Part shown: positions 2,503 to 50,092 of the stretch, one piece after another | Position numbering within the stretch: position 1 is the first letter of the stretch | How the letters are laid out: each line of letters opens with the position of its first letter | NCBI GenBank assembly: GCA_963817715.1 | Contig: CAWFPG010000004.1 | Span: 327,673 to 391,672, forward strand | Reading direction: 5' to 3' | Length of the DNA: 64,000 nucleotides | Source: an uncultured Gemmatimonadales bacterium | Lineage (GTDB): Bacteria; Gemmatimonadota; Gemmatimonadetes; Gemmatimonadales; GWC2-71-9 | The notes under the pieces: model-generated | Told to the model about the DNA's origin: nothing | Seen by the model: only the letters and a program-made list of their open reading frames with translations | Database searches by the model: none | Program-made: the position numbers and the translations under genes

Positions 2503-3824
2503 TGCGGACCGGCAAGGGGTTCCGTCATGGGGTGCATCCTCCGGAGGCCAAGGCGCTCACCAACCAGCTGCCGATCCGACGAATGCCGTACCCCGAGGAG
2601 CTGGTGCTGCCACTGCGGCAACACGCCGGCGCGCCAGCCACGCTCTGCGTCAGGGTCGGCGACCGGGTGGAGCGCGGTGACAAGGTGGGCGAGGCCGACG
2701 GCTACATCTCGGTGCCGATTCATGCCTCGGCCGCCGGCATCGTCGCCGGGGTCGAGTTGGCCCCCCATCCCGACGGCTCGATGGCGATGGCGGTGCGGAT
2801 TGCGGTCGATCCCTACGCGCCCCAGGTCCCGAGGCCCCGACTGGTGCCCCGGTGGGAGGGGCTCAGCGCCGACGAGGTGGTCGCCGCGGTGCGCGATGCC
2901 GGTGTGGTGGGAATGGGCGGTGCCGGCTTCCCGACCCACGTGAAGCTGGCGCCACCCAAGGACCAGCCCGTGCACACCTTGATCATCAATGGTGCCGAGT
3001 GCGAGCCGTACCTGACCTCGGATCACCGGACCATGGTGGAGTATCCCGAGCGGGTGCACTTCGGCATCCGGGTGATGATGCAGACGCTCGGTGTGGAGCG
3101 GGTGGTGATCGGGATCGAGCGCAACAAGCCCGATGCGGTGGCGGCACTCGAGCGGACCATGCCGGACGACCTCGACGTCACCATCCTGCCCCTCACCGTC
3201 AAGTATCCGCAGGGCGCCGAGAAGATGCTCATCCACGCGGTCACCGGGGTCGAGGTGGGCTCGGGCAAGCTGCCGGTCACCGCCGGGGTCGTGGTGCAGA
3301 ATGTCGGTTCCGCCGCCGCGATCGCCGAGGTGTTCGAGACCGGCTTGCCGCTGATCGAACGGATCGTGACGGTCACCGGCCACGGCCTGCGCAAGCCCGC
3401 CAACCTGATCGTGCCGGTGGGCACCCGACTGCGTGATCTCTTTGCCTACTGCGGCGGGCTCACCGCCGATGCCGCCGAGGTCGTGGCGGGCGGACCGATG
3501 ATGGGACTGGCACAGGCCAACCTCGACGTGCCGATCACCAAGGGCACCACCGGGGTGGTCGTGCTCGCGCGCGATGAGACCCGCGGCGAACAGGTCTACC
3601 CCTGCATTCACTGTGGCCGCTGCCTGGACTCCTGTCCGGTCTTCCTCAACCCATCGCTGCTCGGTGACCTGGCCCGGGTGGGCCGCTACGAGGCGATGGC
3701 CGAGGCGCACCTCGCCGACTGCATGCTCTGCGGCTCCTGTTCCTACGTCTGTCCCTCGAACATCCCGCTGTCGCAGCTCTTCCAGGTCGGCAAGGTGGCG
3801 CTCCGGCGGCAGCGGGCGGCATGA
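2502..3824 (+). CDS. rnfC: Rnf electron transport complex subunit C
   Basis: The ATG overlaps the PFOR stop (TGATG at 2500-2504). 441 aa with GMGGAGFPT and two ferredoxin motifs, CIHCGRCLDSCP and CMLCGSCSYVCP. Confidence 0.9.
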   Translation: MRTGKGFRHGVHPPEAKALTNQLPIRRMPYPEELVLPLRQHAGAPATLCVRVGDRVERGDKVGEADGYISVPIHASAAGIVAGVELAPHPDGSMAMAVRIAVDPYAPQVPRPRLVPRWEGLSADEVVAAVRDAGVVGMGGAGFPTHVKLAPPKDQPVHTLIINGAECEPYLTSDHRTMVEYPERVHFGIRVMMQTLGVERVVIGIERNKPDAVAALERTMPDDLDVTILPLTVKYPQGAEKMLIHAVTGVEVGSGKLPVTAGVVVQNVGSAAAIAEVFETGLPLIERIVTVTGHGLRKPANLIVPVGTRLRDLFAYCGGLTADAAEVVAGGPMMGLAQANLDVPITKGTTGVVVLARDETRGEQVYPCIHCGRCLDSCPVFLNPSLLGDLARVGRYEAMAEAHLADCMLCGSCSYVCPSNIPLSQLFQVGKVALRRQRAA

Positions 3825-16589: not shown

Positions 16590-17536
16590 GCCTGCGGGAG
16601 CTGGTGCGCCGTCGGGCGGCGGGGCTGGCCGTGCGGCTGGTCTTCCCTGAGGGAGATGACCCGCGAATCATCGCCGCCGCCGGGACACTCCGGGAACTGG
16701 GGATTGCCGAGCCACGGCTCCTGGTCGCGGGCGAGCGTCCGGCCCCCGACGACCCGGCCCTTCAGGCCGCGGCCGATCTGCTCCGGGCCCGTCGTCCGGA
16801 GGCGGTGCGCGATGGACTGCATGCGCTCGATCTGGCTGCCGATCGGCTGCGCTTCGCGGCCGCGCTGGTGGCCCACGGTGAGGCCGATGGTTGTGTGGCC
16901 GGCGCCGTTGCGCCCACGGCCGAGGTGTTGCGAGCGGCGCTCTGGGCGATCGGCATGCGCGACGACCTCGGCACGGTGAGCGCGGCGATGTATCACGGCC
17001 TGCCCGATGGCCGCATCCTCACCTACACCGACGTGGCGGTGATTCCATCGCCCACCCCGGCTCAGCTCGCCGCCGCGGGGGCCGCAGCGGCCGACGATCG
17101 CCGCGCCCTGGTCGGCGACGAGCCGCGGGTGGCCTTCCTTTCGTTCAGCACCCACGGCAGCGCTGAGTGTGCCGAGACCGAGGCGGTGCGGGACGCCCTG
17201 GCACGGTTCCGGGTGCTCCGGCCCGCGGTGATCGCCGATGGCGAGTTGCAGGTCGATGCCGCGCTGGTGCCGGAGGTCGCCGCCCGCAAGTGTCCCGACT
17301 CGCCGGTCGCCGGCCGGGCCAATGTGCTGGTCTTTCCATCACTCGACGCGGCCAACATCGGCTACAAGCTCACCGAGCGGCTGGCCGGGGCCACGGCGGC
17401 CGGGCCGTTGCTGCAGGGACTGGCGCGACCGATGTCCGACCTGTCGCGCGGCGCGACACCCGATGATATTGTGGATGTGGCGGCGATGGTGGCCCTTCAG
17501 GCCGCGAATCGCCCGGGATCTCTCCAGGAGCGTTGA
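16586..17536 (+). CDS. phosphate acetyl/butyryl-transferase family protein
   Basis: 316 aa with an ATGA overlap with coaD. It shows a PTA_PTB-like sequence (FPEGDDPRII, DGELQVDAAL, ANVLVFPSLDAANIGYKL). Confidence 0.75.
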   Translation: MSLRELVRRRAAGLAVRLVFPEGDDPRIIAAAGTLRELGIAEPRLLVAGERPAPDDPALQAAADLLRARRPEAVRDGLHALDLAADRLRFAAALVAHGEADGCVAGAVAPTAEVLRAALWAIGMRDDLGTVSAAMYHGLPDGRILTYTDVAVIPSPTPAQLAAAGAAAADDRRALVGDEPRVAFLSFSTHGSAECAETEAVRDALARFRVLRPAVIADGELQVDAALVPEVAARKCPDSPVAGRANVLVFPSLDAANIGYKLTERLAGATAAGPLLQGLARPMSDLSRGATPDDIVDVAAMVALQAANRPGSLQER

Positions 17537-17877
17537 CAACGATGTCCATCACGACGACGCAATCGCCCGATGGGGTGACGATGGTGACGGTCGAGGGCCA
17601 GCTCATCGTGGCGAATCGGCAGGAACTCAAGCAGGTGATCGCCGACGCGGTCGAGGCCGGTGCCCGGAAGCTGGTGCTCGACTTTTCGGCCACCGCCTAC
17701 ATCGATTCCTCGGGCCTCGGTGCACTGGTCTCGATCAACAAGCGGGTGCGCGAGGCCGGCGGCGAGCTGCGCCTCGCGGGTCTCAACGAGGACCTGCGCT
17801 CGCTCTTCGAGCTGACCAAGCTGGACACCCTCTTCGCGATCGCGCCGACCGCGAACGAGGCTCTCGCGGGATTCTGA
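17533..17877 (+). CDS. STAS-domain anti-sigma-factor antagonist (SpoIIAA/RsbV-like)
   Basis: 114 aa; LDFSATAYIDSSGLGALV is typical of a STAS domain with a phosphorylatable Ser. Confidence 0.85.
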   Translation: MTTMSITTTQSPDGVTMVTVEGQLIVANRQELKQVIADAVEAGARKLVLDFSATAYIDSSGLGALVSINKRVREAGGELRLAGLNEDLRSLFELTKLDTLFAIAPTANEALAGF

Positions 17878-17885
17878 GACCGGCG

Positions 17886-18332
17886 ATGGGATTTGCCGCC
17901 CGGCGCATCCCGGCGCCGTCACTCGGTGCCGCCCGATTCGAGCTCGTGCTGCCCACCGACCTCGCCCTGGTCGGCGAGGCGGTCGAGGCCGTGGTCGACT
18001 GTTGTCGCGCGCAGGGCCCGCTCACCGGCCGGGCCCGGTTCCGACTCCGCACGGTCACCGCCGAGGCGATCGTCAACGCGATGACCTACGGGAATGCCAA
18101 CGACCCGGGTCGCCGGGTGCTGGTGGAGGTCGAGGTGCACCACGAACACATCGTGCTGGCGGTGGCCGATGAGGGCGACGGATTCGATCACGCCAGCGTG
18201 CGCGACCTCACCGAGGTCGAGTGCCACGAGGCCACCCGTGGTCGCGGGTTGTTCATGATCCGACGACTCGCCGAGCAGGTCGTCTTCAACGACCGAGGAA
18301 ACACCATCTGGATGACTCTGCCCCGACACTGA
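17886..18332 (+). CDS. anti-sigma regulatory factor / Ser-protein kinase (RsbW/SpoIIAB-like HATPase)
   Basis: Internal ATG at 17886. It carries EAIVNAMTYGN (N-box-like), VADEGDGF and GRGLFMIRRL motifs, directly after the STAS gene. Confidence 0.75.
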   Translation: MGFAARRIPAPSLGAARFELVLPTDLALVGEAVEAVVDCCRAQGPLTGRARFRLRTVTAEAIVNAMTYGNANDPGRRVLVEVEVHHEHIVLAVADEGDGFDHASVRDLTEVECHEATRGRGLFMIRRLAEQVVFNDRGNTIWMTLPRH

Positions 18333-18349
18333 GCACCCTGCGCGGCCTC

Positions 18350-19858
18350 GTGCCGCAGTTGGGTGCATTGGCGGGGGCGACGCTCAGGCTCTGGCGGCTC
18401 GATGGAGCCACCTGGCGGCTGCGCGCCGGCCCCGACGCCGCGGCGCCCCGGGCTCCTCGTGAGCCGGGGCAGTCGGCTGCGGCGTTTGTCGCCATTCCCG
18501 GCAGTGCCGAGCTCTACCTCGAGGTCGTCCCGCACGACGCGCGGTCCCCCGATGCCCTGGTGGCCCGGGTGCTGCCGATCGTGGCGGCCGTGCTGCACGC
18601 CGACCAGGGACAGCTGGCGCTCACCACCGAGCTGGCCGCGCGCTACGAGGAGATCGACCTGCTCTACTCGATCGGCCAATTGCTGGGGCGCTCCGAACCG
18701 GTCGAACAGGTGGCCACCCACATCCTCCGCGAGGTGAGCGCCGTGATCGGTGCCCGCCGCGCCGGCCTCCGGATTCTCGGCGACGACGGCATGCTGCAGC
18801 TCGTGGCCCTCGTCGGCGACGGCGACGACGAGATGATTCCCGACGCCGTCTCGGTCGATGCGCCGGACGACGTGGTGGTCGCGCGTGCGGTGCGCACCCG
18901 ACGGGTCCAGAGCGGGGTGCAACCCGATTGGGTCGAGGGCGAGGTGCTCGTGGTGCCGATGGTCTACGCCGCCAGCGGCCAGCCGGCACGGGTGGTGGGC
19001 ACCCTCGCCCTGGCCGACCGGGCGGGTGGTGGCCGGTTCACCCGGGAAGAGACCAAGCTGCTCGCCGCGGTCGGGACGCAGATCGGTGCCGCGATCGAGA
19101 ACGCCCGGCTCGCCGCGGCCGAGCGTGAGCAGCTCCGGGTTGCCCGCGAGCTGGAGCTCGCGCACGACCTCCAGCTCAAGCTGATGCCGACCTCTGTCGC
19201 ACTGCAGGGCGAGGCCGAGGTCGCGGTGTGGAGCCAGGCCGCCGAATCACTCGGCGGCGACTTCTACACCTTCGCCCGTCTCGGCCACGGCCGGATCGGG
19301 GTGATGCTCGGCGATGTCTCGTCGCACGGCTTCTCGGCGGCGCTCATCGCGGCGCAGGTGATGGCCGCCGCCGGCATCCATGTGAACATCGACACGTCGC
19401 CCGACGCCACACTCGCCCTGATTCGCACCTCGCTCGAGGACGAACTGGCCACCACGGAGATGTACCTCACCCTGGTCTATGCGATGTGCGATCCCGAGGC
19501 CGGCACGCTCAGCTATTCGAACGCCGGGCATCCGTATGCCTTCCGGGTGCCGCGCACCGGCGATCCGGTGCGGCTCGCGACCACCGCGCCACCGCTCGGC
19601 CTGGTGGAACACGGCGAGTTCGGGTGCGCCGTGATTCCGTGGCAGGCCGGCGAGGACCTGCTGGTGCTCTGCACCGATGGCCTCACCGACGGTGCCCGGG
19701 CCGACGGGGAGCGCTACGGCGGCGATCGGCTGCTGGCACGCCTTGCGGCGGGGCGCGAACTCGATCCGGCGGCGCTGGTGCAGTTCGTACGCGACGACCT
19801 CGACGCCTTCGGCGCTGAACGCACCGACGACTGCACCCTGCTCGTGATCCGGGTCTAG
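18350..19858 (+). CDS. GAF-domain PP2C/SpoIIE-family serine phosphatase (RsbU-like)
   Basis: A GAF-like middle region, then a SpoIIE/PP2C region (GGDFYTF...GDVSSHGFSAAL...CTDGLTD...DDCTLLVI). The start is uncertain (GTG at 18350). Confidence 0.8.
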   Translation: MPQLGALAGATLRLWRLDGATWRLRAGPDAAAPRAPREPGQSAAAFVAIPGSAELYLEVVPHDARSPDALVARVLPIVAAVLHADQGQLALTTELAARYEEIDLLYSIGQLLGRSEPVEQVATHILREVSAVIGARRAGLRILGDDGMLQLVALVGDGDDEMIPDAVSVDAPDDVVVARAVRTRRVQSGVQPDWVEGEVLVVPMVYAASGQPARVVGTLALADRAGGGRFTREETKLLAAVGTQIGAAIENARLAAAEREQLRVARELELAHDLQLKLMPTSVALQGEAEVAVWSQAAESLGGDFYTFARLGHGRIGVMLGDVSSHGFSAALIAAQVMAAAGIHVNIDTSPDATLALIRTSLEDELATTEMYLTLVYAMCDPEAGTLSYSNAGHPYAFRVPRTGDPVRLATTAPPLGLVEHGEFGCAVIPWQAGEDLLVLCTDGLTDGARADGERYGGDRLLARLAAGRELDPAALVQFVRDDLDAFGAERTDDCTLLVIRV

Positions 19859-41191: not shown

Positions 41192-42733
41192 TCACCACAA
41201 CTTCTTGTATACCCTGAACCAGAGTCGCGTGGTCAATGCCACCGGTACCAGACCGGAGCCACTCGCCACCGTGCGCTCGATCGCGAGTCCGGCCTCGACC
41301 GGCATCCGGCGCTCGCCGTCGCGTCGGGTGCCGTCGTGGGCATAGCTCATCCCGAGGCCCACCCGCACCGCACTGGCGGCGGTGCCGTCGCCCATGGTCG
41401 CAACGTCGCCGCCGAACGGCGCGGCCTGGTCACCGGGGAGCGACCAGCGGTCCGTGCCGCGGTGAAACCACTGTACCGAGCCGGCGATGGCCAGGCGGTC
41501 GGCGAGTCGCCAGTAGGGCCGTGCCGTGAGGGTCAGCACGTCGCCGGGATTCCAGCGGAGTGATGCCAGCCGGGTGACCGGGAGGAGAAACTCGTCGCGG
41601 CGACCGATGCGCGCCTCCCGGGTGCCCGCCAACTGGCTCCGCCAATCGGCCGATGCGCGCACGCCGACCCGACCCCGACCGGTCTCGACGGTGCCTCGCA
41701 CGCGCAGGTCGAGCTGCCCATCGCCGGTGCCCGGATCGCGCAGGTGATCGGCACGGGGTGGTGTCCCGGTCGGCAGCACCGCGCTGCCGGTGAACCAGGC
41801 CCCGAACCAGCTGCGACGCTCCGCCGAGCTGCGCGACGCGAGGTGCCAGGTGACGCCCAGCTCGATGTCGCCGAGGCCGACCAGCGGCTGCTCGTCGAAG
41901 GTGGCCAGGTTGAACGCGTCGGAGGCAGTGAGCAGCGCGTCGAATTCGCTTTCGGTGATCGCCGCCGAGGGCAGTGCCAGCCCACCGGTCGGGGCAGCCA
42001 CGCCGAGCTCGTTGCCGAATCGGTCATGGTAGTCGGCTGCGGTCGCCAGTAGCGCGCTGCCGTCGGGTGAGTCGCCCAGTGGCAGCACCGGCGAGGCGCT
42101 GCTGGGGTTGACCAGCAGGGCGGCGACGGCGTCGTGAAACGCCGCGCCCTCCTGCACGGTCCTGGTGGCGAGCGCCAGGAGGTCGGGCGACTGATCGAAG
42201 TCGCCGGCGCTGATCCGGCCGGCGACGGCATCGAGCGACGCCTGGAACTGGTCGAGGTACGCACCACTCGACTGGTTGCCGAGCAGCGCCGGGTTGAGGC
42301 CAAGGGTGGCGTTGCTCACGTCGGGGGTGAGCTTCGCCTCGGTGCGCGCCGAGACGATCGGGAGCGAGGCGAAGATGGTGAGCCGGTCGGTCACCCCCAC
42401 GGCCAGGCCGATGGTGCCGACATTGCGCTGGCGCATCAACTGGGCGTCGAGAGCGCCCAGCGATCCACCGCTGGCCGGGGTACCCAGGATCGTCGTCAGG
42501 CGCTGCTCGAGGTCGGCCACCACTGGAGCCGCGGAGGCGGTGAGGGCCGCGGCGGCGACCGGATCGCCGAACGCACGCCGACTGCCGTCGGCGTACTCCT
42601 CCGACGCGGGACTGAAGCCACCGCCGAATGCAATGCGCAGGGTGCCCCGCGGGGCGGTGAGGTAGGGAAGCTGGCCCGCGAGCGGGGCGGTCGCCAGCAG
42701 CAGGCCGAGGGCGGGAAGGAGGCGGCGCATCAT
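41192..42733 (-). CDS. hypothetical outer-membrane beta-barrel protein
   Basis: Start at ATGATG (42733). It has the signal peptide MMRRLLPALGLLLATAPLAGQ, alternating strand-like segments and a C-terminal aromatic signature ...RLWFRVYKKLW. Confidence 0.55.
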   Translation of the reverse strand: MMRRLLPALGLLLATAPLAGQLPYLTAPRGTLRIAFGGGFSPASEEYADGSRRAFGDPVAAAALTASAAPVVADLEQRLTTILGTPASGGSLGALDAQLMRQRNVGTIGLAVGVTDRLTIFASLPIVSARTEAKLTPDVSNATLGLNPALLGNQSSGAYLDQFQASLDAVAGRISAGDFDQSPDLLALATRTVQEGAAFHDAVAALLVNPSSASPVLPLGDSPDGSALLATAADYHDRFGNELGVAAPTGGLALPSAAITESEFDALLTASDAFNLATFDEQPLVGLGDIELGVTWHLASRSSAERRSWFGAWFTGSAVLPTGTPPRADHLRDPGTGDGQLDLRVRGTVETGRGRVGVRASADWRSQLAGTREARIGRRDEFLLPVTRLASLRWNPGDVLTLTARPYWRLADRLAIAGSVQWFHRGTDRWSLPGDQAAPFGGDVATMGDGTAASAVRVGLGMSYAHDGTRRDGERRMPVEAGLAIERTVASGSGLVPVALTTRLWFRVYKKLW

Positions 42734-42770
42734 CGCACCAAAGGTAGCCGAGCCCGGTGGAATGTCGCGA

Positions 42771-42786
42771 TGGCATGATATTGGCA
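42771..42786 (+). promoter_or_regulatory. sigma-54-type (-24/-12) promoter candidate upstream of the first pilin-like gene
   Basis: TGGCATG-ATAT-TGGCA compared with the consensus TGGCACG-N4-TTGCW. GG and GC are correctly spaced, with two mismatches. It lies 87 nt upstream of the ATG at 42873. Confidence 0.5.
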
Positions 42787-42872
42787 AGCTGCTGTGCCCC
42801 TTGGGCCAAGCGCCGCCGGGCCTCGCCGGCCAGGGGCCACCACGATCACCGGGCGATGCACGGGAGAACGCG

Positions 42873-43322
42873 ATGCCCCGTCGGAACGGATTCACCATCA
42901 TCGAGCTGCTTGTCGTCATCACGATCATCGGCATCCTCGCGTCGATCGCGTTGCCACGCTACGCCTATCTCAAACAGCGCGCCTACCTTGCCGCCGTGAA
43001 GAGTGATCTCCACAATCTGGTGACCGCCCAGGAAGCCTTCTACGCGAGCAACGACGACTACGCCGGCTCGATCGCGCCCGGCAACAGCGACGTCCCGGGG
43101 AAGCGCGGAGCCGGCGCGGTGGCCTTCCAGTTCAGCCCCGGTGTCCGACTCGTTCGGATGCGCTATCGATACAACCGTCGGCGGGGGCAGGGCTGGAACG
43201 CGGTGGTCCGGCACCTGCAGATCAAGGATCGATCGACGGATCGCTGCGGGATCTATATCGGGTCGGATCGGTACTCGCCGAATCGGGCGGTGACCTCGCC
43301 CGGAGCGGTCGCCTGCTGGTAG
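42873..43322 (+). CDS. type IV pilin-like protein (prepilin-type N-terminal cleavage/methylation domain), copy 1
   Basis: MPRRNG|FTIIELLVVITIIGILASIALPRY is a class III signal with Glu5. It has a C-terminal Cys pair (C...ACW). Confidence 0.8.
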   Translation: MPRRNGFTIIELLVVITIIGILASIALPRYAYLKQRAYLAAVKSDLHNLVTAQEAFYASNDDYAGSIAPGNSDVPGKRGAGAVAFQFSPGVRLVRMRYRYNRRRGQGWNAVVRHLQIKDRSTDRCGIYIGSDRYSPNRAVTSPGAVACW

Positions 43323-43323
43323 G

Positions 43324-43782
43324 TCAGCGGCGCAACACGTCGAGCGAGCGACCCAGGAACGAATCGGCATCCATCGCGCTCGAGAGTCGCAGCGTCTGCC
43401 CCTGAAGCTCCCCGGTCAGCACGTAGCCGGACCCGTCGGGTCGCCAGTCGACGCCCTCATCGACCGGGCCAGCCTCGGCGAGGGAGCCAGGCAGCCTCCC
43501 GTGCTCTTCGGTGAACCCCTCGACCCGTCCCCGCTCCAGATACAGGGTGAATCGCAGCGCGGCCTCGCGTCGATCAGCGCTCAACACGCTGTCGGTGGCC
43601 GGGCCGAAGATCCACCCCGGTCGCGCGATCCAGATGTAGCCCAGGAAGCCCCAGCCGAGTGCCAGCGCCAGGACAGCCCGCCTGTTGCGGGGGGGCGGGA
43701 CCGGCCGCACGGCGGGGTCCTCGGCAGGCAAGACCTCCCGGACCGCCTCGTAAAGCGCCTCGCGGCGCTGCTGTTCGTTCAT
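43324..43782 (-). CDS. single-TM protein of unknown family, pilin-partner paralogue 1
   Basis: Starts MNEQQRREALYEAVREV, then a TM helix (AVLALALGWGFLGYIWIA), LRFTLYLERGRVEGFTEEHGRLPGSLAEAG and a C-terminal DADSFLGRSLDVLRR. Its stop is 1 nt from the stop of pilin copy 1. Confidence 0.55.
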   Translation of the reverse strand: MNEQQRREALYEAVREVLPAEDPAVRPVPPPRNRRAVLALALGWGFLGYIWIARPGWIFGPATDSVLSADRREAALRFTLYLERGRVEGFTEEHGRLPGSLAEAGPVDEGVDWRPDGSGYVLTGELQGQTLRLSSAMDADSFLGRSLDVLRR

Positions 43783-43892
43783 GTCGCCTCCCGGGTCGTC
43801 GCCGCCGGTGGATCTACCGACTACCGGGGCCAACCTTGCAAGAGGCGGACCGCCAGCATCCTGGCCCAAATGTTGTCATATTGAGAACGCGG

Positions 43893-43975
43893 GCTCGGGT
43901 GGCGGAATGGCAGACGCAGGGGTCTTAAACACCCCGGGGGGCGACCCCGTGCGGGTTCGAGTCCCGCCCTGAGCA
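43893..43975 (+). tRNA. tRNA-Leu (anticodon UAA), class II with a long variable arm
   Basis: Hand-folded: acceptor GCTCGGG/CCTGAGC, D-arm GCGGAATGGCAGACGC, anticodon arm GGGGT-CTTAAAC-ACCCC, a 15-nt variable arm, T-arm GCGGG-TTCGAGT-CCCGC and discriminator A. CCA is not encoded. Confidence 0.92.
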
Positions 43976-44002
43976 TGCTTCCTGTCTCACTCCGGAGCGA
44001 CC

Positions 44003-44446
44003 ATGCGGGATCGGCGGGGCTTCACCCTCATTGAACTGCTGGCGGTGGTGACGATCATCGGCATCCTGGCGTCGATGGCGGTGCCGCGCTACGCCTATCT
44101 GAAGCAGCGGGCCTTCATCGCGTCGATGATCTCCGACCTGCACAACCTGATCTCGGCCGAGGAGGCTTTCTATTCGGTGAACGGCGACTACGCAGGCGGA
44201 ATCACTCCCGGCGCCGAGGTCCCCGGCACCGGGGGCGCGGGCCGGGCGACGCTGATTCCGAGTCCCGGCGTATCGATCACGGTCACTTGGCACTACAGTG
44301 ACTCGAACGGCGAGGGATGGAGCGCAGTGGCAACCCATCCCGGAGTGACCGACCCGAACCGTGATCAATGCGGAGTGTTCATGGGCAATGTGAGCTACTC
44401 GCCCAGCGCCTCGGTGACCCAGCCGGGTGTGATCACCTGTTACTGA
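44003..44446 (+). CDS. type IV pilin-like protein (prepilin-type N-terminal domain), copy 2
   Basis: MRDRRG|FTLIELLAVVTIIGILASMAVPRY. It is paralogous to copy 1 along its whole length and ends with a C-terminal Cys pair (...ITCY). Confidence 0.8.
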   Translation: MRDRRGFTLIELLAVVTIIGILASMAVPRYAYLKQRAFIASMISDLHNLISAEEAFYSVNGDYAGGITPGAEVPGTGGAGRATLIPSPGVSITVTWHYSDSNGEGWSAVATHPGVTDPNRDQCGVFMGNVSYSPSASVTQPGVITCY

Positions 44447-44458
44447 GCACCGCGCCAC

Positions 44459-44938
44459 TCATTCGCGCAGCACCGTCAGGGCGTTGCCGAGGAAGCTGTC
44501 GGCGTCGGCCCGGGAGGGCAGCTGGAGTTCGAGGCTGCCGTACCGTCCGCTCAGCACGTAGCCCTCGTCGGTGCGCTGCCAACTGACGCTGTCTTCGACC
44601 ATCCCGGCCTGGGCGAGTGAGGTGGGCAACCGGCCCCGGCGGGCGACGTACTCCTCGACGCGGCGCCGCTGCAGGTACATCGCGAAGCGGAGGGTCGCCT
44701 CCTGCTTCGCCGGCGAGAGTGTCACGGGTGCCGAGGGGCCGAAGAAGAACTCGGGGCGGGAGGACCAGAGCCACGCGATGACGAGCCAACCAAGCACGGT
44801 CACGAGCACCAACAACCGGATCCGTTCGCGCCGCTGGCCGTGGCGCGCCGTGCGCGCCTCGGCCGGGGTCGGCTCTCGCCCGGCAACCGCATCACGGACC
44901 GCCTCCTCGAGCTGCCGCCGTCGTTCCGCCTCGTTCAT
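44459..44938 (-). CDS. single-TM protein of unknown family, pilin-partner paralogue 2
   Basis: Starts MNEAERRRQLEEAVRDAV, then a TM helix, LRFAMYLQRRRVEEYVARRGRLPTSLAQAG and a C-terminal ADADSFLGNALTVLRE. ATG at 44938. Confidence 0.55.
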   Translation of the reverse strand: MNEAERRRQLEEAVRDAVAGREPTPAEARTARHGQRRERIRLLVLVTVLGWLVIAWLWSSRPEFFFGPSAPVTLSPAKQEATLRFAMYLQRRRVEEYVARRGRLPTSLAQAGMVEDSVSWQRTDEGYVLSGRYGSLELQLPSRADADSFLGNALTVLRE

Positions 44939-44992
44939 CGCTCCCTCCCCGGGGATTGCGGTGCGGTCCCGTTCGTCCGAGACTCCGGTCCC

Positions 44993-45400
44993 ATGACCGA
45001 TCCCGCGCCGCGCATCATCTGGACCTTCCGGCTCAAACTGGCCACCGGCCTCGCGGTGTTCGTGCTGCTTGTCATGGTGATCCGGGCCCGCGCGGAGCGC
45101 ACCGGGATCGCCGCACGACGCGCTGCGTTGCGCGGAGCCCTGCAAGAGCTGGTCACGCTCCAGCAGGACCGCTATGCCTTCTCCGGGCGGTTTGCCACGA
45201 CCCTCGATTCACTCGCCGACTGGGTGCCTCCACCTGGCGTGGTGGTCAGGTTCACGGCCGATGACGACCAGGACTGGCGAGCCATCGCCACCGATCCTGA
45301 CCTTTCCGTACCACCGCGAACCTGCGGCGTCTACCTGGGGCGGCCCGAGAGCGCGCCGCATCGCGCGGTCGTGGAGGAAGGCGTCCCAGCCTGCTGGTAG
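44993..45400 (+). CDS. degenerate pilin-like protein, copy 3 (no G/FTxxE cleavage motif)
   Basis: 135 aa with one N-terminal hydrophobic helix (LATGLAVFVLLVMVI). The C-terminal part aligns with copies 1 and 2 (WRAIATDP...CGVYLG...GVPACW). Confidence 0.5.
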   Translation: MTDPAPRIIWTFRLKLATGLAVFVLLVMVIRARAERTGIAARRAALRGALQELVTLQQDRYAFSGRFATTLDSLADWVPPPGVVVRFTADDDQDWRAIATDPDLSVPPRTCGVYLGRPESAPHRAVVEEGVPACW

Positions 45401-45415
45401 CGTGCTGCGCGTCGG

Positions 45416-46183
45416 TCAGTCTCTCTTCCGCAATATCGTGAGGCTGTTGCCGAGGAAGGAATCGACGGCCATGCGATCGGTCAACCGCAAGGTGGTCTCA
45501 CCGATGGTCGCCGCGAGCGTGTAGCTCCGTTCGCCGGTCGCCTCCAGCCGGATCGCTTCGTCGCGCACCCCGGCCTCGCCAGGGAACGACGGCAGCCGCC
45601 CCGTGCGGGCAAGGAAGTCGTCGGTCCGGTGGCGTGCCAGCCAGAGGCCGTAGCGCATCGACGGTTCGGACATCGCGGCGGGAGTGGTGAACGGCGCCGC
45701 CTTCGGTGGGCGAAGGAACGCCGGTGGGCTGAGCAGCACGAGCACCACCAGCAACCACCCGATCGAGGCGGCGGCGAGCCACGGCGGATCGGGGATCGGG
45801 CGCGGCGGGATGGCCCGACGCTCGGTCTGGCGCCGTTCGGCCTGGCGACGTTCCTCGCGCTCGAGCACCGTCTGGTGCGCGTCGGCGAGGAGTTGGCCAA
45901 GCTCGGGATCACCCTCGGCTCCCCACATCGTTTCGCTCGGTGCCTGATCGAGCGGCTCGTCGGTGGTGGTGTCGCCCGGCATGATTGCCGTTCCCTCGGG
46001 GTCCGGCCCCAGCTCCGGTCCCTGCTCCAGTTCCGGTTCCGGCACGGCCTCGGCCATGGGCGCCGCCTTCGGCTCGGCCTTCGGCTTTGCCTTCGCCTTG
46101 GGCTTGGCCTTTGGCTTGGCCTTCGCCTTGGCGTTGGTGCGCCGCGTGGGGCGCTTCCGGTCCTCAGGCTTGTCGGGGGGCAT
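45416..46183 (-). CDS. single-TM protein, pilin-partner paralogue 3, with an N-terminal Lys/Ala/Pro-repeat extension
   Basis: The C-terminal half is paralogous to the other two (…FLARTGRLPSFPGEAG…MAVDSFLGNSLTILRKRD). The N-terminus carries AKAKAKPKAKPKAKAKPKAEPKA. The start is uncertain (46183 or 46057). Confidence 0.5.
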   Translation of the reverse strand: MPPDKPEDRKRPTRRTNAKAKAKPKAKPKAKAKPKAEPKAAPMAEAVPEPELEQGPELGPDPEGTAIMPGDTTTDEPLDQAPSETMWGAEGDPELGQLLADAHQTVLEREERRQAERRQTERRAIPPRPIPDPPWLAAASIGWLLVVLVLLSPPAFLRPPKAAPFTTPAAMSEPSMRYGLWLARHRTDDFLARTGRLPSFPGEAGVRDEAIRLEATGERSYTLAATIGETTLRLTDRMAVDSFLGNSLTILRKRD

Positions 46184-46550
46184 TGCCGGCGAGCGCGTCG
46201 GCGACCTGCTCGGGAAAGAGGCGAATGTCGATCGGCTTGGTGATGTAGCCATCGAAGCCGGCGTCGAGCGCCTTGTCCCGGTCGCCGGCCATTGCATGGG
46301 CTGTCAGGGCGACCACCGCGAGGTCGGCGAACGCCGAGGCGCGCAGTTCGGCCAGGAGGGCGAAGCCGTCCTTGCCCGGCATCTGGATGTCCATCAGCAC
46401 GAGGTCGGGACGCTGGCCCTCGATGGTGGCGAACAGCTCCTCGCCCCCGGGCAGCCCGGTCACGGCGTGCCCCTTCAGCTCGAGCAGGGTGCGGAACAGC
46501 TTCATGTTGTCGGGGCTGTCCTCGACGATCAGGATGTTCGCCACGGTCAC
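46164..46550 (-). CDS. stand-alone response regulator receiver protein (CheY-like)
   Basis: 128 aa with ILIVEDS, LVLMDIQMPG, ALTAHA and YITKP, a complete REC signature. The GTG start overlaps the upstream stop (GTGA). Confidence 0.85.
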   Translation of the reverse strand: MTVANILIVEDSPDNMKLFRTLLELKGHAVTGLPGGEELFATIEGQRPDLVLMDIQMPGKDGFALLAELRASAFADLAVVALTAHAMAGDRDKALDAGFDGYITKPIDIRLFPEQVADALAGNAPRQA

Positions 46551-48697
46551 TCCATCTGGTTGCGCTTGAGCACGGCCTTGACCCGAGCCACCAGTGAACG
46601 GGGTTGGACGGGCTTGGTGAGGAAGTCCTGGGCGCCGAGTTCGAGCGCCTCCAGCTCGGTGTCGTCGGTACGGGCGGTGAGCATGATCACCGGGATCTGG
46701 CTCAGGCTCACCCGAGCCCGCATCTCCTCGAGCACGCCGATGCCTGTGAGGTTCGGCATGTCCTGATCCAGGATCACGAGGTCGACCACCTTGGTGTCGA
46801 GGGCCTCAAGCGTTTCGAGTCCATCAGTTGCCTCGTGGATGGTGAACCCTTCGCGCTCCAGCACGGTGCGAAGCAACCGGCGCATCGCCGAGTCGTCGTC
46901 GGCGAGCAGGATCCCGGGCTCACCATCGCCGCCATCGCGCGCCTTGCCCTTGGCCGGCGGTGCCGGTGCGGTCGGGGCTGCGTCGGCGGGCAGCTGGAGT
47001 TGGGTCTCACCGAGCACCCGGTGGATCTCGTCGAAGGAGGTCATCCCGCGCCAGTAGCGGTCCAGGCCGCTCTCCCAGAGGGTGCGCATGCCGTACGGAC
47101 GCGAGGCCTCGATCAGCTCGCCAAGCGGGGCGCCGGCCTCGACCAACCGTGGCACTTTGCCCTCGATCGGGAACATCTCCATCACCGCAAGGCGCCCCTT
47201 GAAGCCGGTACCGCCGCAGTGCTTGCACCCGGGGGCCTGCCGTGGCTCGAACGGCCCCTCGTACCCTTCTGGTGGGCGCGCCTCCTCGGGCACCGCCTCG
47301 GGAGGCACCGGCTCGGCGCAGCGCTCGCAGAGACGTCGCACCAGGCGCTGGGCCATGATCCCCTTGATCACCGAGCCGATCTTGAACGAATCGACGCCCA
47401 TGTCGCGGAGGCGGGTGACCGCCGAGACGGCGTCGTTGGTGTGCAGCGTGGAGAAGACGAAGTGGCCGGTGAGGCCCGCCTGGATCGCGATCGTGGCGGT
47501 ATCGAGATCGCGGATCTCGCCGACCAGGACGATGTCGGGATCCTGACGCAGCACCGACCGCAGGGCGGTCGCGAAGGTGAAGCCCTGTGCCTCGTTGACC
47601 TGCATCTGGGAGATGCCGTCCACGTCGTACTCGACCGGGTCCTCGACCGTGACGATGTTGACCTTGCCGGTCTTGAGGTGATTGAGCACGGCATAGAGCG
47701 TCGTCGTCTTGCCGGAGCCGGTCGGCCCGGTGACGAGCAGCATCCCCTCGCGATGCCCCAGGATGCGCATCAGCACCTCTTCCTCCTCGGGCGGGAGGGC
47801 GAGGTCGGGGATCGAGGTCTTGAGGTTGCTCTTGTTCAGGATCCGGATGACCAGCTTCTCGCCACGCCGTGCCACCGGCGCGGTGGCCACCCGGAGGTCG
47901 ACCACGGAACCATCCACGCGAGCCGTCGAGCGACCATCCTGCGGCGTCATCGAATTGGTCACGTCGAGCCCGGCAACGATCTTCACGCGCCGCACCAGCG
48001 ACGGCCCGGCCGCCTCGGGCAGCCGCATCACCTCGCGGAGGATGCCGTCGACGCGATACCGGACGATGATCTCGTGGGACTCGAGTTCCGAGTGGATGTC
48101 GCTGGCCCCGGCCCGCACCGAGTCGGTGATCAGGGCGTCCACCAGCTTGGCCATCGGGGCGTCGAAGGCCGGGTCGCGATCCTGGCCCTCCGGTCCCTTC
48201 CCCTCGATGTCGAGTGCCGGGGCAGGGGCCAGCCCGAGCAGCAGGCGGTTGATCTTGTTCTCTGGCCGGTAGAATTCGTCGAGCTTCTCCGCGATCTCGA
48301 CCGGCGATCCCATCGCGTACTTGACCTGCCGCCCGGCCACGAACTCGAGTTCCTGCTCCGCGGTGAGGTCGCGAGGGTCGCTGGTCGCCACCGTGAGCGA
48401 GCGTTCGTCGAGGGCGATCGGCACCACCTGGTGCTTGCGGGCGATCGACTCCGGCACCATGCCGGCCGCATGCTTGTCGGCCGTGGCGACCGTCGCGATC
48501 GGAAGCCGGAACCGCTTGGCCAGCGCGGCCACCAGGTCGGCGTCGGTCACCAGCCCGGCGTCGACGACGGCCTGCCACAGGGTCGGCGATCCGCCGCCAG
48601 CGAGCATCGCGAGCCTGGTCTCATCGGCGAGCCCGAGTTCGATCAGGTACGCGCCGAGCCAGGCGTCGGGGAACGGAGTGGGACCGGGAGGCGTCAT
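46547..48697 (-). CDS. GspE/PilB-family type II/IV secretion ATPase with N-terminal T2SSE_N-like domain and C-terminal receiver (REC) domain
   Basis: ATG at 48697. It has Walker A (VTGPTGSGKTTT), GEIRDLDTA, STLHTN, a tetra-Cys motif (CERC...CKHCGGTG), and a C-terminal REC domain (LLADDD...LVILDQDMP...MLTA...LTKP). Confidence 0.85.
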   Translation of the reverse strand: MTPPGPTPFPDAWLGAYLIELGLADETRLAMLAGGGSPTLWQAVVDAGLVTDADLVAALAKRFRLPIATVATADKHAAGMVPESIARKHQVVPIALDERSLTVATSDPRDLTAEQELEFVAGRQVKYAMGSPVEIAEKLDEFYRPENKINRLLLGLAPAPALDIEGKGPEGQDRDPAFDAPMAKLVDALITDSVRAGASDIHSELESHEIIVRYRVDGILREVMRLPEAAGPSLVRRVKIVAGLDVTNSMTPQDGRSTARVDGSVVDLRVATAPVARRGEKLVIRILNKSNLKTSIPDLALPPEEEEVLMRILGHREGMLLVTGPTGSGKTTTLYAVLNHLKTGKVNIVTVEDPVEYDVDGISQMQVNEAQGFTFATALRSVLRQDPDIVLVGEIRDLDTATIAIQAGLTGHFVFSTLHTNDAVSAVTRLRDMGVDSFKIGSVIKGIMAQRLVRRLCERCAEPVPPEAVPEEARPPEGYEGPFEPRQAPGCKHCGGTGFKGRLAVMEMFPIEGKVPRLVEAGAPLGELIEASRPYGMRTLWESGLDRYWRGMTSFDEIHRVLGETQLQLPADAAPTAPAPPAKGKARDGGDGEPGILLADDDSAMRRLLRTVLEREGFTIHEATDGLETLEALDTKVVDLVILDQDMPNLTGIGVLEEMRARVSLSQIPVIMLTARTDDTELEALELGAQDFLTKPVQPRSLVARVKAVLKRNQME

Positions 48698-48820
48698 CGG
48701 CCTTCCTGTGCGAATCGGGTGAACACCCTGGAAAAGTGGCTGTTGTTCGCGGCAGCCGAAAAAGATACGATTCCGCGGCTCGTTTGCATCCTGCGTCCCT
48801 CGTCTCTGGAGTCCCGCGGC

Positions 48821-50092
48821 GTGTCCCGCTCCGCCTCGGTCACCGGTGGTAGCCATCGTGTCCCCGGTGACAAGTCGATCACCCATCGCGCCCTGATGCT
48901 GGCGGCGCTTGCCCAGGGTCGCTCTCGGCTCACGGGCGCATTGACCGCGCTCGATGCCCGCTCGACCGCCAGGGTCCTTCGGCAACTCGGCGCACGCATC
49001 TCCCCCCTGCGCGAGGGAGCCGTGGTCACCATCGAGGGGAACGGGGGATTCACCCAGCCATCTGGCACCCTTCACTGCGGCAATTCCGGGACCACAGCTC
49101 GACTCCTCCTCGGACTCCTTGCCGGGCAGCCAGTTGAGGCCCGGTTGAACGGCGACAAGTCGTTGCGGCATAGGCCTATGGCTCGGGTCACCGATCCACT
49201 TCGGGCGATGGGGGCCTTGATCACCACCCGGGACGGCCACCTACCACTCACCATCGGTGGGGGGCGTCTTCGGCCCCTCCACTGGCGGATGCCAGTGGCC
49301 TCGGCACAGGTCAAGAGTGCCCTACTGCTGGCCGGGGCCGCCGCCGGTGTTCCGGTCACCCTGGAAGAGCCAGCCCCCAGCCGGGACCACACCGAGCGCC
49401 TCCTCACCAGTCTCGGCCACACTGTCACCAGGACCCAGCGGGGACTCACCTTCGAGCCGACCGGCACCTTCCGGCCCCTCGATCTCGCCATCCCCGGTGA
49501 TCCCTCCTCGGCAGCCTTCCTGGTGGGCGCTGCCCTCCTCGGCCGGCAGGGACTGGTGCGGATCGCCGCAGTTGGCTGCAATCCGAGTCGGATCGGCTAT
49601 CTGGAGGTGCTGGGGAGGATGGGGGCGGCGGTCGCGGTCGAGCCGCTGGCGACTGCGGGCGAGCCGGTGGCCGATCTGCTGGCGGGTCCCGCTCGGCTTC
49701 GGGCCGTCCGGGTCACGGCCACCGAGATCCCGGCGATCATCGACGAGGTGCCGATCCTCGCCGCCCTGGCCGCCCGGGCCGAGGGCGAGTCGCGCTTCAG
49801 TGGACTGGCCGAGCTCCGGGTCAAGGAGAGTGACCGATTGGAACTGCTGGCGACCAACCTCCGGTCGGTCGGGGTCGAGGCGGTGGCCGATGGCGACGAT
49901 CTGGTGGTCGTCGGGACCGACCGGTCGCTCACTGGCCTCGTCCGAACCGAGGGGGACCACCGGATCGCCATGGCGTTCGCCGTGCTGGACCGGGACCGGG
50001 CCATCACGATCGACGATCCCGGCTGTGCCGCGGTCTCGTTCCCGGGCTTCTGGACCACGCTTGCCGCGGTGCGCCGCGAGGTCGACCGGTGA
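48821..50092 (+). CDS. aroA: 3-phosphoshikimate 1-carboxyvinyltransferase (EPSP synthase)
   Basis: VPGDKSITHRALMLAA, CGNSGTTARLL, LRHRPM and RVKESDRL motifs. The GTG start at 48821 is tentative. This is only the last third of the 1162-aa ORF. Confidence 0.9.
   Translation: MSRSASVTGGSHRVPGDKSITHRALMLAALAQGRSRLTGALTALDARSTARVLRQLGARISPLREGAVVTIEGNGGFTQPSGTLHCGNSGTTARLLLGLLAGQPVEARLNGDKSLRHRPMARVTDPLRAMGALITTRDGHLPLTIGGGRLRPLHWRMPVASAQVKSALLLAGAAAGVPVTLEEPAPSRDHTERLLTSLGHTVTRTQRGLTFEPTGTFRPLDLAIPGDPSSAAFLVGAALLGRQGLVRIAAVGCNPSRIGYLEVLGRMGAAVAVEPLATAGEPVADLLAGPARLRAVRVTATEIPAIIDEVPILAALAARAEGESRFSGLAELRVKESDRLELLATNLRSVGVEAVADGDDLVVVGTDRSLTGLVRTEGDHRIAMAFAVLDRDRAITIDDPGCAAVSFPGFWTTLAAVRREVDR

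Follow-up and report, generated by a model that had tools for sequence, protein, structure and literature searches.

A GspE/PilB-type ATPase that carries its own receiver domain (REC) is encoded in a 64-kb window, the whole stretch of DNA analysed here, from a soil bacterium of the order Gemmatimonadales (about 70% G+C). That the 716-amino-acid (aa) protein is built from an MshEN-like N-terminal domain, a T2SSE ATPase core and a C-terminal receiver is, from its sequence, virtually certain. The reading that we favour, and hold to be moderately probable as a whole, is that this is an active PilB/GspE-type motor, gated by phosphorylation of D644 in the receiver and not by cyclic di-GMP (c-di-GMP), that would serve the pilins encoded next to it through a shared filament machine.

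Pilus extension motors are known to be controlled by c-di-GMP (MshE, PilF, PilB-PilZ-FimX), by small GTPases and by receiver proteins acting in trans. A built-in receiver makes it possible to test directly whether a two-component system controls a type IV filament ATPase through the protein itself. New here are the residue-level case against c-di-GMP, the contrast among the ATPases of a single genome, a paralogue linked to a NUDIX hydrolase gene, and structural readings of two neighbouring products, a membrane protein that we call X and a beta-barrel.

Architecture and distribution of the ATPase-receiver fusion

The ATPase gene begins with an ATG preceded by GGAAGG. Its product matches three Pfam profiles: MshEN (PF05157) over residues 74-146, with 62.8 bits and profile positions 14-87 of 90, which is the MshEN_C/N1 half only; T2SSE (PF00437) over residues 179-560, with E 4e-118 and 394.6 bits against a cut-off of 24.9; and Response_reg (PF00072) over residues 596-707, with E 6e-31 and 107.3 bits against a cut-off of 30.2. 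These matches recover the domain layout that a preliminary description of the window had suggested checking, MshEN being represented by its C-terminal half, and they bear out two of its claims, that all core GspE motifs are present and that the C-terminal receiver is complete. Walker A (residues 324-333), the Asp box (351-357), Walker B (386-397), the His box (410-421) and the CxxC pairs at 457-460 and 491-494 of the tetra-Cys zinc motif were all located, and with the PF00437 score these boxes place the protein in the T2SSE superfamily. The fused receiver carries every residue expected of a PF00072 member: D601 and D602 of the acidic DDD (600-602), the acceptor D644 in VILDQDMP, T674, the switch aromatic F692 and K695.

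PilB, GspE and MshE proteins of known structure (Geobacter PilB, 5tsg and 5zfr; Myxococcus PilB, 3jc8; Thermus PilF, 6f8l) have in common with our ATPase the N1/MshEN_C and N2 subdomains and the ATPase core, with all of its boxes and the tetra-Cys motif. The fusion differs from them by the extra C-terminal receiver, and it is not encoded with PilC and PilT or with gsp genes. Receivers that act on pilus motors in trans include PilG and PilH of P. aeruginosa. The PatA-type regulators of Synechocystis likewise bind pilus motors as separate receiver proteins (bioRxiv 2021.06.11.447907), and Xanthomonas DrdR, which consists of a receiver only, stimulates ATP hydrolysis by both PilB and PilT, to which it binds (PMC13507683). 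All of these act on the motor directly and not on transcription, but as independent polypeptides. Our motor instead has one receiver as part of its own chain and another that is co-translated with it, and by analogy the fusion looks like a covalent version of the DrdR-PilB arrangement. A receiver fused in cis to T2SSE also occurs in the REC-MshEN-T2SSE proteins of Wang et al. 2016 (Supplementary Table 4, e.g. Gmet_3473 of Geobacter metallireducens), but their receiver is N-terminal and not C-terminal (596-707) as here. The part of that table examined contains REC-MshEN-T2SSE and MshEN-T2SSE-cNMPbind and not MshEN-T2SSE-REC, and the REC-MshEN-T2SSE proteins are not known to have been characterised.

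The fused architecture is conserved well beyond this genome. A word-indexed search returned 120 clusters among the matches listed, at 57-88% identity, nearly all of them with MshEN, T2SSE and Response_reg; the exceptions, a few entries that are shorter or partial, are without PF05157 or PF00072, and the best relatives are all named Gemmatimonadota or Gemmatimonadales. In an alignment of 111 sequences from the same identity range, the catalytic motifs and every signature residue of the fused receiver are conserved at 95% or more, and the 35 residues that link the core to the receiver are unconserved. In a scan with each species represented by one genome, the C-terminal part has 217 relatives, nearly all of them from Gemmatimonadales. 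The protein is present in 111 of 151 sampled genomes of the order (67/67 in the window's own family, 16/16 in a second and 27/67 in a third), counts that combine the orthologues linked to aroA with the NUDIX-linked paralogues, since separating the two by E-value is unreliable. An exhaustive comparison, made without profiles, with 1.84 billion cluster representatives ranked the 150 best 50%-identity clusters; in at least 112 of these a REC follows the ATPase, at 34-61% identity, and one is named as Elusimicrobia. Such an architecture is therefore common in nature. Fourteen of the same 150 representatives are about 1000 aa long and carry two complete T2SSE cores in tandem (P0127, P0128, P0130, P0132, P0133 and others).

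The preliminary description had raised the prospect that the architecture would turn out to be both common and already characterised. It is common; a full-text literature search found no study of an ATPase with a C-terminal receiver, and in a 2024 review of PilB regulation (PMC11656802) neither "fused" nor "receiver" occurs and REC domains are mentioned for FimX only. The family is thus widespread in sequence databases yet unstudied. It is present in all 67 sampled genomes of its own bacterial family and in many 50%-identity clusters beyond, so that one biochemical study would suffice to annotate many proteins that are now labelled "PilB" or "TadA".

The N-terminal domain and the other assembly ATPases of the genome

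In the preliminary description, two N-terminal segments (residues 13-34 and 39-61) were compared with the tandem motif of MshEN domains, and c-di-GMP was put forward as a possible second input. The segments exist and are homologous to MshEN_N, but neither half passes even a relaxed form of the motif, and the proposed input is not supported. As defined by Wang et al. 2016, the motif consists of two tandem 24-residue copies of RLGxx(L/V/I)(L/V/I)xxG(L/V/I)(L/V/I)xxxxLxxxLxxQ with a 5-residue spacer, relaxed to [RKPN]hGxxhhxx[GAS]hhxxxxhxxxhxx[QNKRYWST] (PMC5013675). Not a single copy of the relaxed motif was found in our ATPase or in any of 120 family members. HMMER alignment pairs D-A-W13-L-G with D-K-R-L-G of Thermus PilF, and T39-L40-W41 with R-L-G of Geobacter PilB. 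The Arg1 positions of motifs I and II are thus W13 and T39, the Gly3 position of motif II is W41, the terminal Gln positions are G36 and R62, and the spacer is 2 residues long against the canonical 5.

Published mutagenesis gives these substitutions some meaning. In the GSPII-A domain of PilF, Ser in place of the motif II Arg (Ser39) abolishes c-di-GMP binding, Ala in place of the motif II Gly (Ala41) obstructs the pocket, and the Gln positions are needed (PMC12002112); His or Arg for Gln abolishes or weakens binding (PMC12002112, PMC5013675). At its Arg, Gly and Gln positions our N-terminal domain departs further from the motif than does the non-binding GSPII-A of Thermus PilF, and on paper it is non-binding alike. 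Like the receptor domain of V. cholerae MshE (5htl; PMC5013675), to which it is homologous, it has N-terminal helical hairpins and then the N1 subdomain, and it differs from that domain at each Arg, Gly and Gln position named above and in the spacer. Because the motif fails, we do not regard the ATPase as an MshEN-type c-di-GMP receptor; judged from its residues, canonical binding has very probably been lost.

A motor with two inputs, phosphorylation at the receiver and c-di-GMP at the N-terminal domain, is accordingly hard to sustain, and we rate it very unlikely. It would have to accommodate two failed half-motifs, a shortened spacer, Thr and Trp at the very sites where Ser39 and Ala41 block binding to GSPII-A, the loss of both Gln residues, and the absence of even one motif from the family. 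What speaks for it is the retained homology, with the hydrophobic scaffold and the turn glycines G22 and G48 still in place, together with the capacity, in principle, of a Trp to stack on guanine as Arg does, and an intact tandem motif in 5 of 109 cluster representatives of REC-fused proteins.

The host genome, 93.6% complete, encodes four ATPases of PilB/GspE size and so permits an internal comparison between a c-di-GMP-type PilB, an intermediate form and two receiver-fused ATPases with a worn-out pocket. The canonical PilB, encoded beside pilT and pilC (C5:329.5-331.3 kb), matches the tandem MshEN motif perfectly. The intermediate (C11:134878-136638, minus strand) has no receiver; it keeps RLG twice and the 5-residue spacer and has lost both terminal Gln. 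The second receiver-fused ATPase (744 aa; C5:513532-515766, locus L002 973-3207) repeats the MshEN-like/T2SSE/REC order and has a DxWL...LW N-terminus; the DxWL signature is found also in about a third of distant REC-fused representatives. No pilus genes lie near it. An open reading frame for a NUDIX hydrolase (L002 about 3200-3685) overlaps its end and is followed by ArsD/ArsA-like genes. On a FastTree tree of ATPase cores, whose supports are approximate and whose sample is biased towards our protein, so that we use it for the sister relation only, the clades of the two REC-fused paralogues group together as sisters (support 0.955). The larger clade around them has 59 tips, of which 46 bear a receiver; the fusion therefore predates the duplication. 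The C11 ATPase nests among the receiver-fused proteins on this tree, and its placement may reflect secondary loss of the receiver.

The two receivers and the presumed source of the phosphoryl group

With a receiver that is complete and conserved, the simplest reading is that phosphorylation controls the motor directly, as the preliminary description had proposed, and conservation of its signature residues in the 111 relatives supports that proposal well at the level of sequence. We consider such control likely, and infer both the phosphorylation and its sign. The acidic pocket, acceptor Asp, Thr, Lys and aromatic switch kept throughout the family point to a classical phospho-switch, and the fusion has survived a duplication and spans a large clade. 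Both facts count against the alternative that the receiver does not gate catalysis and that the ATPase is constitutively active, in which case the receiver would serve localisation or docking, or would act as a phosphate sink or relay station for an output elsewhere. That alternative can draw on the unconserved linker, which suggests a loose tether, on the likeness of the adjacent small receiver to the relay receivers of hybrid kinases, on the three Hpt-containing proteins encoded in the genome, and on FimX-type REC domains, which act in localisation (PMC11656802); we regard it as unlikely.

The gene adjacent to that of the ATPase, and translationally coupled with it, encodes a stand-alone receiver. 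Its start GTG and the stop codon of the ATPase share the sequence GTGA, an overlap that had been noted before and is real. A second GTG lies 6 nt (two codons) downstream, where a GGAG is better spaced, and this may be the true start. With E10/D11, D54, T83, Y102 and K105 the product is a complete single-domain receiver. It is also the most conserved gene of the module, at 94% where the ATPase has 88%, and in almost all of 80 related loci it immediately follows the ATPase or lies close by. The label "CheY-like" is apt for its fold and not for its family: with 53 bits the best CheY model stays well short of its cut-off of 200, and the top model matches are receiver regions of hybrid kinases. No che genes were noted beside it or in the module, a region that was not systematically annotated for them. 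The X1 gene that follows starts within the final 20 nt of the receiver gene.

No histidine kinase is encoded in the window, as the preliminary description had stated. The sole HATPase_c match (18042-18326) is an RsbW-like anti-sigma serine kinase beside a GAF-PP2C phosphatase. That pair (17238-19858, plus strand; kinase, then an RsbU/SpoIIE-like phosphatase) forms a partner-switching module and is not a two-component kinase. The genome as a whole offers 36 HATPase_c matches, a number that includes non-kinases such as the RsbW-like protein. We propose that a remotely encoded kinase would phosphorylate D644 in the flexibly tethered receiver and thereby change hexamer assembly, ATP turnover or docking. 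The same donor would most likely feed the stand-alone receiver, which might compete for the phosphoryl group as a phosphate sink, pass it on as a relay partner, or itself bind the motor as a second receiver.

The proposed role of the motor and its gene neighbourhood

The module is laid out as cmk-aroA | ATPase-REC, REC, (X + pilin) x 1-3, barrel | recN, an order found by tblastn in about 75 of 80 Gemmatimonadales loci. None of the related loci, about 80 in number, has a platform (PilC/GspF), alignment-complex or secretin gene in the module, so the ATPase-receiver fusion is not encoded with a cognate platform and machine genes as PilB and GspE are. PilC, the secretin and the prepilin peptidase are each encoded once in the genome, on a contig other than that of the module; the only T2SSF gene (C5:332.6-333.6 kb) lies beside the canonical pilB-pilT. 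Prepilin-motif genes, 13 in all, occur in four places. Among the 151 sampled genomes of the order, 148 contain T2SSF, in many cases just once, and since it is so nearly universal its co-occurrence with the fusion is uninformative.

In the reading that we favour, the hexameric ATPase would keep the fold of its MshEN-like domain and the N1 docking subdomain without the canonical c-di-GMP pocket, dock on the single PilC platform, and with the prepilin peptidase and secretin build the adjacent private pilins, each paired with an X protein. A specific signal would then toggle an alternative filament on and off post-translationally. Use of the shared PilC/PilD/secretin machine for these pilins is a tentative part of the proposal, to which we give slightly less than an even chance.

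It is also conceivable that the ATPase powers a process other than pilus assembly, without PilC, such as export through a FapF-like barrel or a membrane task of the X proteins. The module lacks machine genes throughout the related loci, the barrel gene is conserved alongside and the best structural matches of its product include a polypeptide export channel, and the paralogous REC-fused ATPase is coupled to a NUDIX hydrolase with no pilus genes nearby. We nevertheless think this improbable, as the ATPase is accompanied by genuine prepilins whose cleavage motifs are intact. To our knowledge, all T2SSE assembly ATPases act through a GspF/PilC platform, and this genome has one. In one relative, moreover, unrelated genes part the barrel from the module, so that a functional link between the two is unproven. 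A bolder version, in which the five conserved genes, for the fused ATPase, the small receiver, X, pilin and barrel, make up a self-contained, phosphorylation-gated minimal filament or export system without PilC or secretin, with X as the platform or adaptor for the Trp-marked N-terminal domain and a 12-strand-type barrel as the outer-membrane exit, is a long shot.

Several observations weigh against a phosphorylation-gated motor for the adjacent pilins. No histidine kinase is linked to the module, either in the window or in the roughly 80 related loci, and the case for phosphorylation of the fused receiver is drawn from its residues. By sequence score the ATPase is a T2SSE superfamily member and not a PilB or GspE equivalog, because it falls below both NCBIfam cut-offs (487.4 against 675.65 for PilB, TIGR02538; 489.5 against 630.25 for GspE, TIGR02533). 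A PilB-type motor that lacks a dedicated platform gene could act on a target other than a filament. The module lies within a conserved housekeeping synteny block, and the adjacency of the pilins is therefore no proof of a functional link. Finally, D11, W13 and W41 are invariant across the family alignment; two invariant Trp at former ligand-contact positions indicate a domain under selection and not in random decay, and this domain may recognise a non-canonical ligand.

The coordinates of the module are collected in the table below. To the right of the ATPase, and divergent from it, lie aroA, cmk and rpsA. To the left of the ATPase and its receiver partner are three convergent pairs of X (minus strand) and pilin (plus strand) genes, two of the pilins with an intact prepilin motif and one without, and a tRNA gene among them, then the gene for a secreted 513-aa protein, and recN at the left end. 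A scan of 42700-48950 for sigma-70 promoters and intrinsic terminators gave nothing above shuffled expectation.

Table. Features of the ATPase-receiver module, in window positions
Feature	Positions	Strand	Details and basis
GspE/PilB-type ATPase with C-terminal receiver (MshEN-like / T2SSE / REC), 716 aa	46547..48697	-	Pfam, motif positions, 111-sequence alignment
MshEN_N-like degenerate four-helix region, residues 13-62	48512..48661	-	Alignment with PilF/PilB/MshE chains, family conservation, motif regex
MshEN_C / T2SSE_N1 subdomain, residues 74-146	48260..48478	-	PF05157; aligns with PilB N-domains 5zfr/5tsg/3jc8
T2SSE ATPase core, residues 179-560; Walker A/B, Asp and His boxes, tetra-Cys	47018..48163	-	Pfam, alignment, motif positions
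Ala/Pro-rich linker, residues 561-595	46913..47017	-	No conserved columns in family alignment
Receiver domain, residues 596-707	46577..46912	-	Pfam, alignment; OmpR/PhoB-like by best matches
Single-domain receiver, translationally coupled to the ATPase	46164..46550	-	128 aa, Response_reg E 3e-27
X1, single-pass membrane protein of an unnamed family, partner of pilin-like 3; Lys/Ala/Pro-rich N-terminus	45416..46183	-	
Pilin-like paralogue 3, without the G|FTLIE prepilin motif	44993..45400	+	No N_methyl match
X2: cytoplasmic helix, transmembrane helix, periplasmic helix and 3-stranded sheet	44459..44938	-	AlphaFold2 model
Type IV pilin 2, prepilin motif RRGFTLIELL	44003..44446	+	Pfam N_methyl E 1.7e-9
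tRNA-Leu(UAA), between pilin/X pairs 1 and 2, 27 nt upstream of pilin 2	43893..43975	+	
X3, paralogue of X1 and X2	43324..43782	-	
Type IV pilin 1	42873..43322	+	Pfam N_methyl E 6.6e-9
Secreted outer-membrane beta-barrel, 513 aa, helical insert, FapF/COG4313-like	41192..42733	-	AlphaFold2, Foldseek, synteny

The 513-aa protein has no Pfam family. Its AlphaFold2 model (pLDDT 92.6, pTM 0.83) is a barrel with a helical insert of about 120 residues. Its best Foldseek matches are the amyloid-export channel FapF (5o67/5o65, E 4e-12 to 1e-10, TMt about 0.7) and a COG4313 channel (4rl8). The X2 model is likewise confident (pLDDT 91.5); X2 matched no Pfam family, and its best match in the PDB is a type IV pilin (4d40), a weak one (probability 0.93, E 0.26). 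Profile-profile comparison of X with the pilins of the module (hhalign) was not significant, with a probability of 0.2.

Related loci hold one to three X/pilin pairs, in which the pilin is convergent or, in some lineages, co-directional with X. Across these loci X and pilin always multiply together, which suggests that they are one-to-one partners. Within 42873-46183 the stop codons of each pair are 1-15 nt apart, so that the genes converge with almost no spacer. The N-terminal Lys/Ala/Pro-rich repeat of X1, KAKAKPKAKPKAKAKPKAEPKA (46057-46183, minus strand), is a feature of that copy and is not shared by X2 and X3.

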